Below are positions 53,142 through 64,000 of a DNA stretch of 64,000 nt, one piece after another. The first letter of the stretch is position 1, and the number at the start of each line of letters is the position of its first letter. The DNA comes from Candidatus Poribacteria bacterium (lineage in GTDB: Bacteria > Poribacteria > WGA-4E > WGA-3G): NCBI GenBank assembly GCA_963665235.2, contig CAXXLX010000001.1:1632001-1696000 (forward strand), written 5' to 3'. The notes below the pieces were generated by a model. The model was not told where the DNA came from and did no database searches. It saw nothing but the letters and a program-made list of their open reading frames with translations. The translations under genes were made by a program, and so were the position numbers.

Positions 53142-54676
53142 TTATTCACCAGCAGCTTGAGGCAATTTCACTGGCGGGACAATTTCATCGGTCAAAATCG
53201 GGGGTTTATCATGTTGTGTGAGATATTTTTCGAATTCCCCAGCCTTAATCACACGAATGGCTTCCTGTAATTGTGTGTCGTATTCTAAATTGACAACCTT
53301 TTCAATTCCGACGTTGAGGTTAAAGAGTTGTTCCGCACGTAGTTTGAGCCATCGTTTGCTGACAAGGATTCCATCTTTCGCAAGCATTTCGTTTAGTTCG
53401 GGTAGCTCTGCTTGTAGCAAGGTGAAGTCCTTGGGCGTTTCGCCTGTGCGCTTCATCTCGTCAACAATCCATTTTGTGACGAAGTTTTCGACAGCGTTTC
53501 GCTTTTCGGCTATACCTTGCATTGTCAATTCCAGCTCGTCTGTTTTATGCGGTGCGATAGCAATATGTGGGGTAATTCCTGTCTGTTCAATTGATGTGCC
53601 GTTTGGTGTAAAATAGGTGGAAATGGTAAGCGACATTGCGCCGACTGCCTCTAAAGGATACCGTTTCTGGACAACTCCCTTTCCGTATGTTTTGGCACCG
53701 ATGAGGATACCTCTGTTAGTGTCCTTCACGGCACCTGCGACGATTTCAGACGCGCTCGCGCTGTACTCATTGATAAGGACAACGAGGGGCATCTGTGGGT
53801 CACACAAGGTTTCAGAGGTCGCCTTGTAATCCTCATTGAATCTCGGTTCACGGCCACGGGTTGAAACGATAGTGCCTTCAGAAATAAATGCATCAGCAAC
53901 GTAGAAAGCAGCGCTCAGAATACCTCCCTGGTTATTCCGCAAATCTAAAATAAGAGCTTTCATGCCAGCCGCCCTATGTTTGAGCAGTGCATCGGTAAAA
54001 TCTTTTGAGGTCCCCTCGTTCCGATTTGTCCCCCAAACTCGCGAAGCCGGATATAACCGATTTGGTCTGCCAACATCGTCGATATAACACTCTCAGATTT
54101 GATTGTAGCACGTTTTAGTGTCACTTCAAACGGGTCTCGAAATTCGCGTTGGACCGTAATTGTTACATCTGTCCCCTTTTTTCCCCGGAGGAGGTCTACC
54201 ACATCGTTAATCGTCAGCCCTGTTCTTTCGTTGAGATGAATTTTTTTCCCATTAACTTCGGTGATATAGTCGCCTGCTTGAAGTCCTGCGGCTTGTGCTG
54301 GGGTATTCGGCATCGGTTTAGAAATTTTAATGAATCCCTGATGGTCCTCGTAAATTTTAACACCGAGCCCCCCAAATTCTGCGTCGTAGAGGTTTTCAAC
54401 GGCCCGTCTCTGCTCCCGCGGGGGAACATAATACGTATACGGATCGCCCAGGGAGGCAAGGGCCCCTTTAATAGCCCCTCGGTACATCTCATCGCTATCT
54501 ACGGGTTTATAGTAATGTCTTTCAGCAGTGTAGATAGCTCTTGCTAATGCCTCGTTCAACATTGCGCGGGTTATCCGTTCTTCGTCGCTAATAGCGGTGT
54601 CGTCAACCTGTATCAGTAAAAACGGTACGACGATAGCAATGGCCAAAACGATGACCGATAAAACATATCTTTTCAT
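53142..54676 (-). pseudogene. S41 C-terminal processing protease (CtpA/Prc), frameshifted at about 54030
   Basis: LGDPYT, FGGLG PDZ and IGYIRL in ORF1; ILDLRNNQGG, SASASEIVAGA and GKG in ORF2. One extra G in the G5 run joins them. Confidence 0.8.
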
Positions 54677-55072: not shown

Positions 55073-56313
55073 ATGAAGATTAAGAAATTAATTCGGTAAT
55101 TTCTGTTTTTATGTTATCCTATTGTCCCAGGAGGTATTGTCTTATGTCAAAACGCCATGAACTTGAACTCAGTAAAGATGAACGCCAAAGACTGATTGAA
55201 CTCCGCGATACAGGGGAACCCGCTTATCTTCGGGAACGTGCGGCTGCCCTGCTAAAGATAGCCGCGGGAACTTCTCCACACAAAGTCGCCCTCAAAGGGC
55301 TGCTAAAGAAGCGAGATCCGGACACTGTTTATGCCTGGCTTCGCCGATACCAAGAAGAGGGCATTCAAGGATTGTTTCATAGACCGGGCCGTGGCCGCAA
55401 ACCCGCGTTCGCCCCCAAATCCCCCGAAGAAGCAGAAACCGAGGCGTTGACGGCTATAGGACAAGACCCGGGACAAGTCAAGGCACATCAAACGCGCTGG
55501 ACGCTTCGCACGGTTGGCGAGGTTGTGCCGTGGCTTGCTAATATCTCTGTGCCGGGTATCCATCAAATCTTCTCACGCCTGGGCATCAGCTATAAGCGTG
55601 CTAGACTGTATTTGCAGAGTCCGGATACAGACTATGCCAAGAAAATCGAACGGATACAGCAAGTTTTAGAAGAGACCCATCAAAACCCACAGAACACGGC
55701 TGTGCTTTATCAAGATGAGTTCTCATTTTACCGAAACCCCACTATAGCAAAAGACTGGGCACAGACAGGGACAAAAACGCCATTAGCCCATCAGAGTTAT
55801 CAATCGGATAAAACTATTTATGGTATCGGTGCTATGAACCCCCATACAGGAGACGTTGTTTATCAGCAAGTGCCAAGCTGCACAGTTGTAGCCCTCCATA
55901 CATTTTATACCGAGATTTGCCAACGCTATCCCGACAAGCAACGGATTTATCTTATCCAAGATAATCGGGCGATACATTTTCACGCCAATTTGATGGAGGC
56001 ACTGCTGCCGCAATCGGTCTCCTTTGTGAAACCGACCCCGCCGAATTGGACCGGAAAACTTTCCGAGAAAATCGGTGAACTGACAAAACTCCCGATTGAA
56101 ATAGTGCAGCTGCCGACTTATGCGCCGTGGACAAATCCGATTGAGAAGTTATGGCGATGGGTGCGGCAATCGGTTCTGCATATCCATCGCCTCTGCGATG
56201 AGTGGGAGACCCTCAAAGACAAGGTGCTTGACTTTATGACACAGTTTAGAGGCGGCTCACAAGCATTGCTACGCTATGTCGGATTATTACCGAATTAATA
56301 AATTAATCTTCAT
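55073..56313 (+). mobile_element. IS630-family insertion sequence
   Basis: 28-bp TIRs ATGAAGATTAAnnnATTAATTCGGTAAT with 3 mismatches. Confidence 0.9.
55144..56298 (+). CDS. IS630 transposase
   Basis: HTH region, YQDE, IQDN, LPTYAPWTNPIEKLW; AGGAGG RBS. Confidence 0.93.
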   Translation: MSKRHELELSKDERQRLIELRDTGEPAYLRERAAALLKIAAGTSPHKVALKGLLKKRDPDTVYAWLRRYQEEGIQGLFHRPGRGRKPAFAPKSPEEAETEALTAIGQDPGQVKAHQTRWTLRTVGEVVPWLANISVPGIHQIFSRLGISYKRARLYLQSPDTDYAKKIERIQQVLEETHQNPQNTAVLYQDEFSFYRNPTIAKDWAQTGTKTPLAHQSYQSDKTIYGIGAMNPHTGDVVYQQVPSCTVVALHTFYTEICQRYPDKQRIYLIQDNRAIHFHANLMEALLPQSVSFVKPTPPNWTGKLSEKIGELTKLPIEIVQLPTYAPWTNPIEKLWRWVRQSVLHIHRLCDEWETLKDKVLDFMTQFRGGSQALLRYVGLLPN

Positions 56314-56746: not shown

Positions 56747-56776
56747 ACGTAAATCGAACCAGTTTGAAATAGAAAC
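56747..56776 (+). repeat. Solitary degenerate CRISPR repeat
   Basis: AATCGAACCAGTTTGAAATAGAAAC matches the 3' 25 nt of the array repeat at 24/25. Confidence 0.8.
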
Positions 56777-57050
56777 CCACGAACCTGTTATAGACAACGT
56801 TTGCGCGGAGAGCTGCTGATAAATGCTGCTGTCGACCTCGCTGCGATAAGCAGTTTCCGTGCTTGTCTCACCCCATGAATTCCGTAAAAAAACGGGATAA
56901 TCCCTTGTCACACAAGGATCCGTCAACCTCCTAGGAAATTTGCGTTACCGGCGGTCGACAAAAATTTGCCCTCTAAACGAAAAAAAATAAAAATAAATTT
57001 GACAAACAGTATAAGGATGTAGTATAATATTAATGCTGATTAAGCGAAGC
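56777..57050 (+). promoter_or_regulatory. CRISPR leader
   Basis: GTCAACC..GGTCGAC inverted motif, A-tract, TTGACA (56999) and TATAAT (57025) before repeat 1. Confidence 0.75.
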
Positions 57051-60000
57051 CTTTTAATCGAACCAGTTTGGAATAGAAATTTCATTATTTAACAGAATCG
57101 CACGACTTGTATCATCCTTTTAATCGAACCAGTTTGGAATAGAAATCTTCTGAATTAACTTTGAAATGAGAGAAGAAATTAATACTTTTAATCGAACCAG
57201 TTTGGAATAGAAATGTGTGAAACCTGTTTTGGTGGCAACCGTGTCAGCATTCTTTTAATCGAACCAGTTTGGAATAGAAATTTTGTGGTGATACCGAGAT
57301 AACCCAGTCCAGACACTTCTTTTAATCGAACCAGTTTGGAATAGAAATTTAAAACCAACTCGCCCGCGCCGCTTTCGTCAAATTGACTTTTAATCGAACC
57401 AGTTTGGAATAGAAATTCGCGTAGTTTTGCAACCACGCTATCCCCCACTTCCTTTTAATCGAACCAGTTTGGAATAGAAATTTTGACACACCGACAAGCA
57501 CTCCAAACCCTCATTCGCCTTTTAATCGAACCAGTTTGGAATAGAAACAACACTGATGGCGATGTCTTTGCAAGAGTTTTTACAACTTTTAATCGAACCA
57601 GTTTGGAATAGAAACTACGTAATATCTAATCTTGAATCCATGTGGCACGTTCAACTTTTAATCGAACCAGTTTGGAATAGAAACAATCTCTGGATAGCGG
57701 GGCAGGTGGTAGTTCCCTGACTTTTAATCGAACCAGTTTGGAATAGAAACGGTCTATTTTAGTAAGATTGGAAAGGAAGGGGAACAACCTTTTAATCGAA
57801 CCAGTTTGGAATAGAAACTTCTGGACTACTGCCCAATGGGAGAACACGGACACGCTTTTAATCGAACCAGTTTGGAATAGAAACTGGCCGGTATCGTTTC
57901 CGCAGGGGCCAGTATGGCAACTTTTAATCGAACCAGTTTGGAATAGAAACCTTTTATGTTTCCTGTGCCAGACCGCTCTGTGATTGCTTTTAATCGAACC
58001 AGTTTGGAATAGAAACTTGGACGGTATTTTAGGGGGATCTGCTTCGGTGGCCCTTTTAATCGAACCAGTTTGGAATAGAAACGCGGAAAACGTGGGGGGC
58101 ATCGGCGTAAATCATGTAGTCTTTTAATCGAACCAGTTTGGAATAGAAACAGGCGGCCCGGCATCGGTGCTGGGACCGCCCACAAACTTTTAATCGAACC
58201 AGTTTGGAATAGAAACGCTGCTGAATCTCTCCAACCGCCTTATCCTCCCACCTTTTAATCGAACCAGTTTGGAATAGAAACTGATTTCAGTATTGATAGG
58301 AATTCGTAAAGGCATTTTACTTTTAATCGAACCAGTTTGGAATAGAAACACAGCGGTTCAATATAACGTCGTTGTTGGGAATGACTTTTAATCGAACCAG
58401 TTTGGAATAGAAACGCTTCGGACAAAGTCAATAAAGCCCCGCTATCCGTTCTTTTAATCGAACCAGTTTGGAATAGAAACGATACGTTGTCTCTTGTTGG
58501 CGGTGGAACTATTAGCAACTTTTAATCGAACCAGTTTGGAATAGAAACATAAAATCTTTGTTCTTACCGGTAAAGACACACCTCTTTTAATCGAACCAGT
58601 TTGGAATAGAAACAGCGGAGTACTGCCTCCGCCTCTGGTCGAATATCGACCTTTTAATCGAACCAGTTTGGAATAGAAACAAGTTTTTTTAAACCTTTTT
58701 CTGTTATTAGCGTCTAACTTTTAATCGAACCAGTTTGGAATAGAAACGTTTCGATAGTCTTCAAGTGCTTCTTCATCGCATTTCTCTTTTAATCGAACCA
58801 GTTTGGAATAGAAACGCTCCATTTCCATGAGCTCACACAAGTCTATCATGCCGCTTTTAATCGAACCAGTTTGGAATAGAAACTATAAGGAGAAACGACA
58901 TGAAAGATTATCAAGTTCTCTCTTTTAATCGAACCAGTTTGGAATAGAAACTCTGTAAAAGTACCTACCAACGTTGCAGGATCCGCACTTTTAATCGAAC
59001 CAGTTTGGAATAGAAACGGATGTTCCATCGGTGCCATATTTGACGATGCGGGCACTTTTAATCGAACCAGTTTGGAATAGAAACGTTACCTCCGAGTTCG
59101 GACTTTTGACTGTCCATTTAGCTTTTAATCGAACCAGTTTGGAATAGAAACCTTGAATCTCCGACACAATAGAGGCGTGTGGAGAAGACTTTTAATCGAA
59201 CCAGTTTGGAATAGAAACGAAGGAATCCCGGTTGGTTCGATTTGGAGAGAATTGACTTTTAATCGAACCAGTTTGGAATAGAAACCGCTCATAGGAAAGT
59301 CGCATTACGTGCTGTCGTTTACTTTTAATCGAACCAGTTTGGAATAGAAACGTAAAAGGATGCTAGCATGGCAGAAAAGTCATTAGCTGCTTTTAATCGA
59401 ACCAGTTTGGAATAGAAACTTTCGAAAACATGTCCGGCTGTCACGACAAAATTTTGCTTTTAATCGAACCAGTTTGGAATAGAAACGCCGAAAACGATTG
59501 TCGCTGCACCCGTCGTTATTTCTTCCTTTTAATCGAACCAGTTTGGAATAGAAACCTTGTGTTTCGTTGTCGTTTTTAGACTTGAGCTCGTCCTTTTAAT
59601 CGAACCAGTTTGGAATAGAAACATGAGATTGTTGCACAATCTCAAACGGTCGAGGAGCTCGCTTTTAATCGAACCAGTTTGGAATAGAAACTCGGTTCCA
59701 ACAGTGGCTTTGATACCCGCCTTTATCTCCTTTTAATCGAACCAGTTTGGAATAGAAACGGTACTGATAATCTTCAAGTGCTTCTTCATCGCACTTCCTT
59801 TTAATCGAACCAGTTTGGAATAGAAACAGTATATTTCCATTAGCATCGATGAGAGTATATCTCCTTTTAATCGAACCAGTTTGGAATAGAAACGATTTTG
59901 AGATACGGGTGTGTGTCAATTCGCATCTCACTTTTAATCGAACCAGTTTGGAATAGAAACTCAGACATAACCGAATACGATTGGCAATTCAATAGTCCTT

Positions 60001-63000
60001 TTAATCGAACCAGTTTGGAATAGAAACGTTTACGCCGCTGTTTCTGTATCCGTTTTTTGAGTTCTTTTAATCGAACCAGTTTGGAATAGAAACTGCGCGG
60101 TCTTTTGTGCTAACTCTCACCTCACAGGCTTTTAATCGAACCAGTTTGGAATAGAAACCGAAACTATCGAAGTATTGACAACTTTGATCGAGGTCACTTT
60201 TAATCGAACCAGTTTGGAATAGAAACTCGATTTTTGGATCGACAAATTCAGCGATCGTTCTCATCTTTTAATCGAACCAGTTTGGAATAGAAACGAAACC
60301 GCAGCAATTCTAACAGAGCTCTGCGGCATACTTTTAATCGAACCAGTTTGGAATAGAAACAGTATCTCAACGAACAAGGACGAAAAAGCTTCATCGCTTT
60401 TAATCGAACCAGTTTGGAATAGAAACTCGAGTTGTGCGGAGAGTTGTGGGAAGATGGTGCCAGTCTTTTAATCGAACCAGTTTGGAATAGAAACTTGCAA
60501 GCGAAGACTTTATTATCTAGTAGCCCCCCGCTTTTAATCGAACCAGTTTGGAATAGAAACTTGGCCGTCACGGTGGCGAGCTCTGGAGTGTTACGAGTGC
60601 TTTTAATCGAACCAGTTTGGAATAGAAACTGAAACTCTACATTGGGGGCCTTGTAAGCAAAGCCGAACTTTTAATCGAACCAGTTTGGAATAGAAACTCA
60701 ACAAGGCGACTCTGCTAACGTTGATTGAGAACTTTTAATCGAACCAGTTTGGAATAGAAACATGATAACAACGATGGACATCGCAGGCGACGATGAATCT
60801 TTTAATCGAACCAGTTTGGAATAGAAACGTTGGCGATCCTAATGCTACGACTATCTCTGAAGGTGCCTTTTAATCGAACCAGTTTGGAATAGAAACTCTT
60901 TAAAGATGCATGTATATCGCTTTCCGTTTTTGACTTTTAATCGAACCAGTTTGGAATAGAAACGTTAAACGACACGATTATGCTGTTTTCTGTATCAACT
61001 TTTAATCGAACCAGTTTGGAATAGAAACCTATCAAGTTGCCAAGAAACTTTTCAAGAAGCGGTTTCCTTTTAATCGAACCAGTTTGGAATAGAAACGTTG
61101 TGCCTGGGTCATGCTGTCCTCCGCATTGCTAATTCCTTTTAATCGAACCAGTTTGGAATAGAAACATGTCACCGCCAGAAGTGTTGAGACCTGAACTTTT
61201 TTCAACTTTTAATCGAACCAGTTTGGAATAGAAACCCGCGTCCGCGCTGGTCTTCATACAGCGCGGTCTCTATCTTTTAATCGAACCAGTTTGGAATAGA
61301 AACGAGATTTTGGATGGTGCTGCAACGAAAGAGGCAGCAGACTTTTAATCGAACCAGTTTGGAATAGAAACTGCATAGAAGGCTTAAGCGACGAGAACGC
61401 TTATAAGGCTTTTAATCGAACCAGTTTGGAATAGAAACGAATTTATTACACGGGGACGTATTGATGTAGAGGACTTTTAATCGAACCAGTTTGGAATAGA
61501 AACGTGTTCACTCCAGGCAGGCTTGCGTCGGTGCTAAACCTTTTAATCGAACCAGTTTGGAATAGAAACCTTCGAACCGAATAGCCGCACGTTCTAATTC
61601 CCCGACTTTTAATCGAACCAGTTTGGAATAGAAACTTTTTAACAGCGTCGACAAGATGTTCCAGCATGAAGCCTTTTAATCGAACCAGTTTGGAATAGAA
61701 ACTAAAAAACGCTTGATTTTGGCACGGAAGTATGCGCGACCTTTTAATCGAACCAGTTTGGAATAGAAACTTACTCGTGCGGCTCAGGCCACAAATCATT
61801 TTTCGCCCTTTTAATCGAACCAGTTTGGAATAGAAACAATGCTACCGCCCGACTGCGTGGAAATGAACAAAGCAGCTTTTAATCGAACCAGTTTGGAATA
61901 GAAACATCATGTCAGAGACTTCCTTAACATCTAACAACCCCCTTTTAATCGAACCAGTTTGGAATAGAAACGGTTGCCCTCTGTATCCGTGGCCTCTAGT
62001 GCCCGCACTTTTAATCGAACCAGTTTGGAATAGAAACGGCACAAAAGGCACGCGAACGATACAACCGTCTGGCAAACTTTTAATCGAACCAGTTTGGAAT
62101 AGAAACGCTCAAACAGCACTTATCGCTCGGACAAACTCTGAACCTTTTAATCGAACCAGTTTGGAATAGAAACCGCGTCCTCGCTTGTCGTATCGGACAG
62201 CAAAGGGAGACTTTTAATCGAACCAGTTTGGAATAGAAACCGCGCAGATGCGTACGTCGAATTGATTCAAACCGAGCTTTTAATCGAACCAGTTTGGAAT
62301 AGAAACCTTTTCGTAGTAAGATGCCCACCGTTGATTTGTGGATACCTTTTAATCGAACCAGTTTGGAATAGAAACAAAAATCATACGTGGCGCGAAGACC
62401 ACCCCTTTTGCTTTTAATCGAACCAGTTTGGAATAGAAACCACAGGTAAATTTATTGAGGGTGAAGCACATCTACGACTTTTAATCGAACCAGTTTGGAA
62501 TAGAAACGATAATCGATGCTTCTCGTATACCGGAAGTCTTCTTTTAATCGAACCAGTTTGGAATAGAAACTTCTGTGTGTTACTAATGGAGCAGCTGCAA
62601 ACCGGGTAGCTTTTAATCGAACCAGTTTGGAATAGAAACTTCTAAAACCGTCCGCACGGTTTCTTCAAAGGCGATCAGCTTTTAATCGAACCAGTTTGGA
62701 ATAGAAACGAAATTCACGCCACCGCGGCCGCGCTGCTCTTCATACCTTTTAATCGAACCAGTTTGGAATAGAAACAGCAATATCCGTTTCAAGGAAATGC
62801 TCTCCATGAATCTCCTTTTAATCGAACCAGTTTGGAATAGAAACAGAGGATGGGGAAATGCACGCGTTTGATATTGGGGCTTTTAATCGAACCAGTTTGG
62901 AATAGAAACACAGACGAATTGCCCGCTTGCTGTCCACCGTCAGAAGACTTTTAATCGAACCAGTTTGGAATAGAAACGAGTTCTTCAATTCGGACGCGGA

Positions 63001-64000
63001 GTTCGCTAATTTCCTTTTAATCGAACCAGTTTGGAATAGAAACACGCGCTTGTTCAGCGAATTCAAACAAGGTCGGTGACTTTTAATCGAACCAGTTTGG
63101 AATAGAAACGTGCGTTTGATACAGAGGAGCAGGTGTTGTTGACCTTTTAATCGAACCAGTTTGGAATAGAAACTGCTAAATACCCTAACCAAGGACGACT
63201 CTCTGCAAACCTTTTAATCGAACCAGTTTGGAATAGAAACGCACCGCGGGAGCGGGAGGAGGAATAGGGATGTGGAGAAGCTTTTAATCGAACCAGTTTG
63301 GAATAGAAACTTTGACTGCCAACGGGAATTGGGGTGATATTGAAATCCTTTTAATCGAACCAGTTTGGAATAGAAACTTGCACATGAAGGACAAGGACAA
63401 CGTGTACAGCATCAGCACTTTTAATCGAACCAGTTTGGAATAGAAACAAACTCGCCTGGCAAATTCTCGTTGAACGCCAACTTTAGCTGGATGTGCAGCA
63501 GCGGTCAAAAGTGTTGAATCGCCTGGCAAATTCTCGTTGAACGCCAACCCTTTTAATCGAACCAGTTTGGAATAGAAACGCGCGGATGGCAACGCGCTGG
63601 TTGAGGCGGTCAAAACTTTTAATCGAACCAGTTTGGAATAGAAACTCTTGCTGGCCACCACGCTGAACATACTCTTCAATTACTTTTAATCGAACCAGTT
63701 TGGAATAGAAACTTCGGTGCGAGGGTGTTGTAGCGGGCAATGCTGAGTGCTTTTAATCGAACCAGTTTGGAATAGAAACAAGGCGATTGCTCCAAGAAAC
63801 CACCCGGTATCCACCTTTTAATCGAACCAGTTTGGAATAGAAACCTACTGTGACGTTCAATAGTTCGCCCTTACTGGATACGTCTTTTAATCGAACCAGT
63901 TTGGAATAGAAACTATTGTTCAGGATTAGCTAACAGTCGACGGACTTTACTTTTAATCGAACCAGTTTGGAATAGAAACCAGGCGTGGTGACGCGCATCA
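57051..64000 (+). CRISPR. CRISPR array, about 103 repeats (manual count), running off the window end
   Basis: 30-bp repeat CTTTTAATCGAACCAGTTTGGAATAGAAAC/T, spacers about 33-40 bp. Repeat and leader style resemble class 1 (type I-B-like). No cas genes in the window. Confidence 0.99.

Follow-up and report, generated by a model that had tools for sequence, protein, structure and literature searches.

Ectopic spacer acquisition at internal repeats of the array is known in Streptococcus type II-A systems, and off-target integration by Cas1-Cas2 is itself already known from E. coli under the name 'neo-CRISPR'. In E. coli, Nivala, Shipman and Church reportedly found (Nat Microbiol, 2018) that over-produced type I-E Cas1-Cas2 integrates off target and leaves a duplication of repeat length. 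Here we describe a 102-nt unit in a type I-B array of a Candidatus Poribacteria genome that very probably arose when type I-B Cas1-Cas2 integrated off target into an existing spacer, together with five units of the same layout outside the arrays. As in neo-CRISPR, spacer-sized DNA is found at a non-repeat site, the duplication has the length of a repeat, and the sites share features of the true target. In contrast to the E. coli case, the system is of type I-B, the events are natural, six are found in one genome, and one target is a spacer within an array. The Streptococcus events also take place inside the array and away from the leader. However, they use a true repeat and yield a normal unit, whereas here the target would be spacer DNA and the duplicated 'repeat' a new sequence. 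Evidence for neo-CRISPR in two other species is called 'circumstantial' in a preprint that cites the E. coli work.

In the type I-B system of Haloarcula hispanica, which has a 30-bp repeat, an AACCC motif at positions 11–15 is essential for integration, with the far cut measured from a second motif, GTGGG, at positions 18–22 (Wang et al. 2016, PMC4872114). The repeat studied here likewise has an AAC motif in this mid-repeat stretch, reading AACCA at positions 11–15, and every pseudo-repeat has A11 A12. Unlike the H. hispanica repeat, the pseudo-repeats have no common second motif, yet 30 (possibly 31) nt are duplicated. The Cas1-Cas2 complex of Pyrococcus furiosus, where the repeat is also 30 nt long, integrates off target in vitro at sites sharing repeat features (PMC6698737). 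The products there are half-site and full-site integrations on plasmids, whereas those described below are fixed genomic scars.

The type I-B array and its nested unit

The window, by which we mean the whole 64,000-nt stretch of DNA that was analysed, corresponds to C1:1632001-1696000 of a 5.3-Mb genome assembled in 4 contigs, two of which are called C1 and C2 here. Its right end is occupied by a CRISPR array on the + strand, which continues past the window to C1:1696526 and has 111 repeats in total (Table 1). Identical and regular repeats, a leader, and I-B cas genes beside arrays with the same repeat mark this as a type I-B array. The leader is contained in the 274-nt stretch that follows a degenerate repeat at 56747, and the arrays on C2 are preceded by a near-identical leader. 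C2 carries 201 further copies of the same 30-nt repeat, in four blocks. Spacers genome-wide (313 repeats) are 33–41 nt long; the mode is 37 nt (77 of 313 stretches), and a length of 35 nt is found in 35 stretches. Among the 102 repeat-to-repeat intervals in the window, 101 measure 33–40 nt and one measures 102 nt.

Table 1. Coordinates of the array, the parts of the nested unit and the off-array units (window numbering unless a contig is given)
Feature	Position	Strand	Remarks
Leader	56777..57050	+	A/T-rich; TTGACA and TATAAT promoter-like hexamers (by eye)
Type I-B-style CRISPR array	57051..64000	+	30-nt repeat ending ...GAAAC; 103 full repeats in window
True repeat before the unit	63418..63447	+	96th of 111
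AAAC	63448..63451	+	probably the first 4 nt of an original 35-nt spacer
X, copy 1	63452..63481	+	30-nt pseudo-repeat (putative target-site duplication)
37-nt insert	63482..63518	+	putative newly integrated spacer; unique in genome
X, copy 2	63519..63548	+	identical to copy 1
C	63549..63549	+	probably the final base of the original spacer
True repeat after the unit	63550..63579	+	
Off-array units	C1:3903, C2:297674, C1:459384, C2:328027, C1:2855846		30–31-nt duplication with unique 36–37-nt insert

The long interval reads AAAC + X + 37 nt + X + C, and this structure is real and base-exact. The two copies of X agree at 30 of 30 positions, a match far beyond chance, and since the bases outside them differ (C versus A before, T versus C after) the duplication is exactly 30 nt. 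The two copies start 67 nt apart, the sum of the repeat (30) and the commonest spacer length (37). Both X and the insert are confined to this single locus in the 5.3-Mb genome. A preliminary description had proposed this layout, with an exact 30-bp X, a spacer-sized insert, and a normal 35-bp spacer once the insert and one X are removed. The layout was borne out base by base, the insert has the commonest spacer length and falls in the 33–41-nt range, and the 35 nt that remain after removal are a length seen in 35 intervals.

Several other features of the arrays and of the window were noted. The degenerate repeat upstream of the leader (56747-56776) has 5 mismatches, and an IS630-family transposase gene lies beside it (55111-56298). 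The seven leader-proximal repeats (57051-57481) end in ...GAAAT, in contrast to the ...GAAAC of all older repeats, and it seems that every newer unit inherited a change that arose in the first repeat. Two spacers (58748-58785 and 59760-59797) are alike along part of their sequence, with 27 of 28 bases identical, as if variants of one target had been sampled. At C2:150769-150935, two identical spacers are two units (132 nt) apart, which suggests a two-unit duplication within the C2 array. Finally, two adjoining minus-strand ORFs at 53142-54676 correspond to the N-terminal and C-terminal halves of S41 C-terminal processing peptidases and represent a split or frameshifted gene.

The same scar outside the arrays

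We scanned the whole genome for close exact direct repeats with unique intervening DNA. Direct repeats of 30 nt enclose inserts of 17, 24, 37, 37, 37 and 37 nt, and those of 31 nt enclose inserts of 15, 18, 19, 21, 22, 23, 27, 36, 37 and 37 nt. Such a cluster of insert lengths is missing at other direct-repeat lengths. All six low-copy exact direct repeats of 30–31 nt, namely the spacer unit and five off-array units, have inserts of 36–37 nt. In the 31-nt duplications one flanking base may match by chance, and a uniform duplication of 30 nt with inserts of 37–38 nt fits all six. The six inserts are all unique in the genome and match none of approximately 1,500 spacers. Because the periods of 67–68 nt are not multiples of three, the off-array units are not protein-coding repeats. 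Moreover, the genome scan found no duplication of 36–38 nt, the length of the other CRISPR repeats here, around a spacer-sized insert, so the scars fit the I-B system specifically and not the systems with 37-nt repeats.

The units at C1:459384 and C2:328027 are located in two copies of a dispersed element of approximately 400 nt, seven other copies of which carry the 30-nt target once and are insert-free. Different inserts occupy this target in the two filled copies, and the duplicates around each insert show the version of the target particular to that copy (A or G at one position), so that these are two independent events at one preferred site. The unit at C1:2855846 lies between the zinc-ribbon and DDE domains of an IS1595-family transposase gene, which it splits, and the duplicated codons are found at the end of one gene fragment and near the start of the other. 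In a paralog at C1:3980724 the transposase gene is unbroken and the target is present once. These empty-site paralogs prove three of the five off-array units to be insertions.

The remaining two units are placed at the end of a gene and between genes. At C2:297674 the unit coincides with the 3' end of a gene whose product bears a C-terminal sorting domain. The final 18 nt of this gene are part of the second copy of the duplication and recur in the first copy at a distance of 67 nt. In relatives, the alignment of homologs begins only at the stop codon, inside the second copy, which fits a duplication and does not provide an empty site. The unit at C1:3903 is intergenic and no clean empty site was found for it, the paralogs of the neighbouring dispersed element diverging right at the site.

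The dispersed element that carries two of the units was not found in the other 111 genomes of the family and has no match in Rfam. A spacer in the 37-nt-repeat array at C1:3935226 resembles this element (C1:459201-459700 and copies) at the off-target insert site, as compared by eye, which hints that the element is mobile and itself targeted by CRISPR.

In three further units the duplicated part is REP-like: C1:2631897 (30/37), C2:513063 (32/35), and C1:828850 with a copy at 829182 (30/36). All three share one register of the REP-like element. These units were excluded from all counts because the insert at C1:2631897 starts with REP-like bases (read by eye) and because REP copies cluster anyway; they could be further integration events or ordinary REP clustering. 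One other candidate, C2:252969 (31/36), was rejected as a new unit. It consists of a degenerate I-B repeat between two identical 31-nt spacers, is located beside a type III-D array, and looks like a remnant of an I-B array.

Sequence features of the target sites

In the best orientation and register, the pseudo-repeats are identical to the true repeat at 11 (X), 14, 16, 12 or 13, and 12 of 30 positions. Summed over the five independent sites this gives 66, versus 45.9 +/- 4.7 for random genomic 30/31-mers handled in the same way (P ~4e-4, for motif tests that were devised after the sites were seen). A11 A12 is present in all five independent sites, for a per-site null of 0.10–0.12. C9 is present in four of the five and so is a 3' AAC, if X is read on the + strand. 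The set of sites is thus repeat-like, but X alone is so only weakly: it agrees with the repeat at 10–11 of 30 positions, which approximately 20–35% of random 30-mers equal. We also built a nine-position consensus from the off-array sites alone. X fits this consensus at six of the nine positions, and 2.3% of 2,389 intra-spacer windows score as well; a window as good as X is present in 50 of 302 spacers. X is therefore a fair target, not an outstanding one.

No second motif is common to the pseudo-repeats, though all are duplicated over 30 (possibly 31) nt, which suggests that the span of the duplication may be set by the integrase complex itself. The preliminary description had presented the event as a ruler-based, sequence-independent duplication. 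The ruler agrees with the constant length of 30 nt, whereas the independence from sequence is at odds with the weak repeat-like signature that the targets share. As read from these sites, target choice appears weakly sequence-dependent and duplication length constant.

State of the I-B cas genes

No cas genes adjoin the array in the window. I-B cas genes are found beside the same-repeat arrays on C2 and encode Cas6, a Cas8b fragment, Cas7/Cst2, Cas5b, Cas3, a Cas1b fragment and Cas2, with Cas8b detected as a fragment only. The sole I-B cas1 in the assembly is truncated: the match to the model is confined to its C-terminal 145 residues, to which a partial repeat is fused. At C2:156735-157330, on the minus strand, the codons for these 145 residues of Cas1b are linked directly to a leader copy, two repeats and 25 nt of a third repeat, and the gene upstream is reduced to a short N-terminal remnant. 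The only intact Cas1 is encoded in a locus with a reverse transcriptase (RT), type III-D genes and 37-nt repeats. Since the I-B integrase is not intact today, the integration events, whose duplicates are still identical, must predate its loss.

A spacer in the window (60361-60396) matches the truncated I-B cas1 of the same genome (C2:156887-156920) at 31 of 34 positions; its source was presumably a cas1 relative carried by another element.

Searches for sources, empty alleles and further nested units

BLAST searches with the 102 nt returned chance matches of 19–27 nt in phages and none in plasmids; the sequence was thus not found contiguous in a phage or plasmid, where its presence would, according to the preliminary description, have refuted the proposed reading. 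The whole in-window array (103 spacers) gave one weak chance match in phages and none in plasmids. As none of the 103 ordinary spacers of the window could be traced to a source, blank protospacer searches carry little weight. Neither viral contigs nor metagenome contigs contained an exact match to 24-mer probes taken from the insert and from X, in a search that passes over diverged protospacers. In 111 genomes of the family the best matches to the unit were of 24–25 nt at 92%. These were rejected as sources and are regarded as chance, being located in unrelated 3-dehydroquinate synthase-like and GrpE-like genes (by eye). A further 175 genomes of the phylum yielded nothing at E<=0.001.

One other record, a MAG of Candidatus Poribacteria, has the identical repeat, and among its 119 repeats there is neither a shared spacer nor a nested unit. 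A 35-nt allele of the nested spacer was found neither in this MAG nor in the 175 genomes of the phylum. No second nested unit is present in 1,109 intervals from nine relatives whose arrays have closely related repeats, nor among the other 312 repeats of the genome itself, which gives no second case in about 1,540 array intervals from the genome, the MAG and the nine relatives together. The checks suggested beforehand, on protospacers, on strains with the 35-nt form and on other arrays, were all blank and speak neither for nor against the proposed origin.

Proposed integration and alternative explanations

In the mechanism that we propose, type I-B Cas1-Cas2 carrying a 37-nt prespacer would have attacked an existing 35-nt spacer (AAAC + X + C) in place of a repeat. 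The two strand transfers would have been separated by 30 bp, one at the AAAC/X junction of the top strand and one at the X/C junction of the bottom strand, and repair of the gaps would have copied X on both sides to give repeat-AAAC-X-insert-X-C-repeat. Staggered cuts 30 bp apart followed by gap repair give the order X-insert-X, and the sizes of the stagger and of the insert are those of the array's repeat and its commonest spacer. The enzyme is probably the I-B integrase, the events would have followed in this order, and the insert may be of foreign origin. Cas6 would be expected to cut at the two true repeats only and to release one over-long crRNA. Over its first 34 nt this crRNA would continue to match the old target, and the new insert would have no function in immunity.

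Support for this reading comes mainly from evidence outside the nested unit. The duplication of 30 nt has the length of the cognate repeat, and the sibling units have duplications of 30–31 nt; the insert of 37 nt is accompanied by sibling inserts of 36–37 nt (37–38 nt if the duplication is taken as 30). The integration into a spacer used as a pseudo-repeat that was suggested from the nested unit is thus supported by its layout and by five sibling scars, three of which have empty-site paralogs.

A process unrelated to CRISPR that adds approximately 67 nt (insert plus duplication) genome-wide, and that struck the array by chance, could also produce a layout common to six units, and the I-B cas1 is broken. 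However, both lengths are those of the genome's I-B repeat and commonest spacer, the inserts are unique and not copied from the genome's own DNA, and the likeness of the targets to the I-B repeat includes its key mid-repeat position. We know of no transposon with a 30-bp target duplication and a 37-nt cargo. The largest target duplications mentioned in the H. hispanica paper are 9–12 bp for transposons and 14–15 bp for the casposon (PMC4872114). We consider a process of this kind unlikely. Since X-insert-X has the format repeat-spacer-repeat, the 102 nt might instead be a piece of a foreign CRISPR array (X as a 30-nt repeat, with a 37-nt spacer) that entered as an over-long spacer or by recombination. 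Such an origin is very unlikely: X is not a repeat anywhere in the genome and was not found in the 111 family or 175 phylum genomes, its 24-mer probe was blank in viral and metagenome contigs, and a prespacer of 102 nt would be far outside the 33–41-nt range of the other spacers. In addition, the same layout is found outside CRISPR arrays at places where the empty site is proven.

Assembly is difficult for arrays with a 67-nt period, and an artefact in this highly repetitive array has to be weighed. An assembly error would be expected to repeat true repeat-spacer units, however, and not to place a unique 37-nt sequence between two copies of part of a spacer. The same layout is also found in unique DNA elsewhere, including a gene whose halves both carry the duplicated codons, and the assembly has just 4 contigs; we regard an artefact as extremely improbable. 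To replication slippage or unequal recombination within the array we give next to no credence. The 67-nt period is indeed that of the array, but whole repeat-spacer units are what recombination between repeats produces, a segment duplicated in tandem would read X-I-X-I (where I is the insert) and not X-I-X, and the insert bears no relation to the repeat or to any other spacer. Off-target integration by the type I-B Cas1-Cas2 complex thus remains by a wide measure the most credible origin of the nested unit.

Implications

Off-target integration is well shown in vitro and in engineered E. coli, and natural fixed examples are few. The main value of the present observations is a series of natural I-B off-target events with internal empty-site controls, more than the single nested spacer. 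A phrase search of the literature, by wording only, found no paper on integration inside a spacer, and within that search this is the first case found of a spacer as an integration target. At least six fixed events are present in the genome: one nested in a spacer, two at the same site in different copies of the dispersed element, one breaking a transposase gene, and the others described above.

On a wider and rather doubtful reading, in which the integrase misfired often, these sites would be a natural read-out of a minimal I-B target code (C9, A11 A12, a 3' AAC, and a fixed span of 30 bp that does not depend on a second anchor motif). They bear on how the length of the duplicated repeat is measured, being constant at 30 bp here with no second motif, and on which few bases the integrase takes for a repeat. 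On the wider reading they would further illustrate how repeats of new sequence could originate, both within and outside arrays. The preliminary description had proposed a route to new repeats; since no unit has been extended past one insert, the birth of new working repeats in this manner is speculation.

For the host, the observations bear on the cost of adaptation, with one gene disrupted and one immune memory probably disabled. It is possible, if rather doubtful, that the I-B integrase of this lineage misfired often enough to act as an insertional mutagen and as a seed of proto-arrays.
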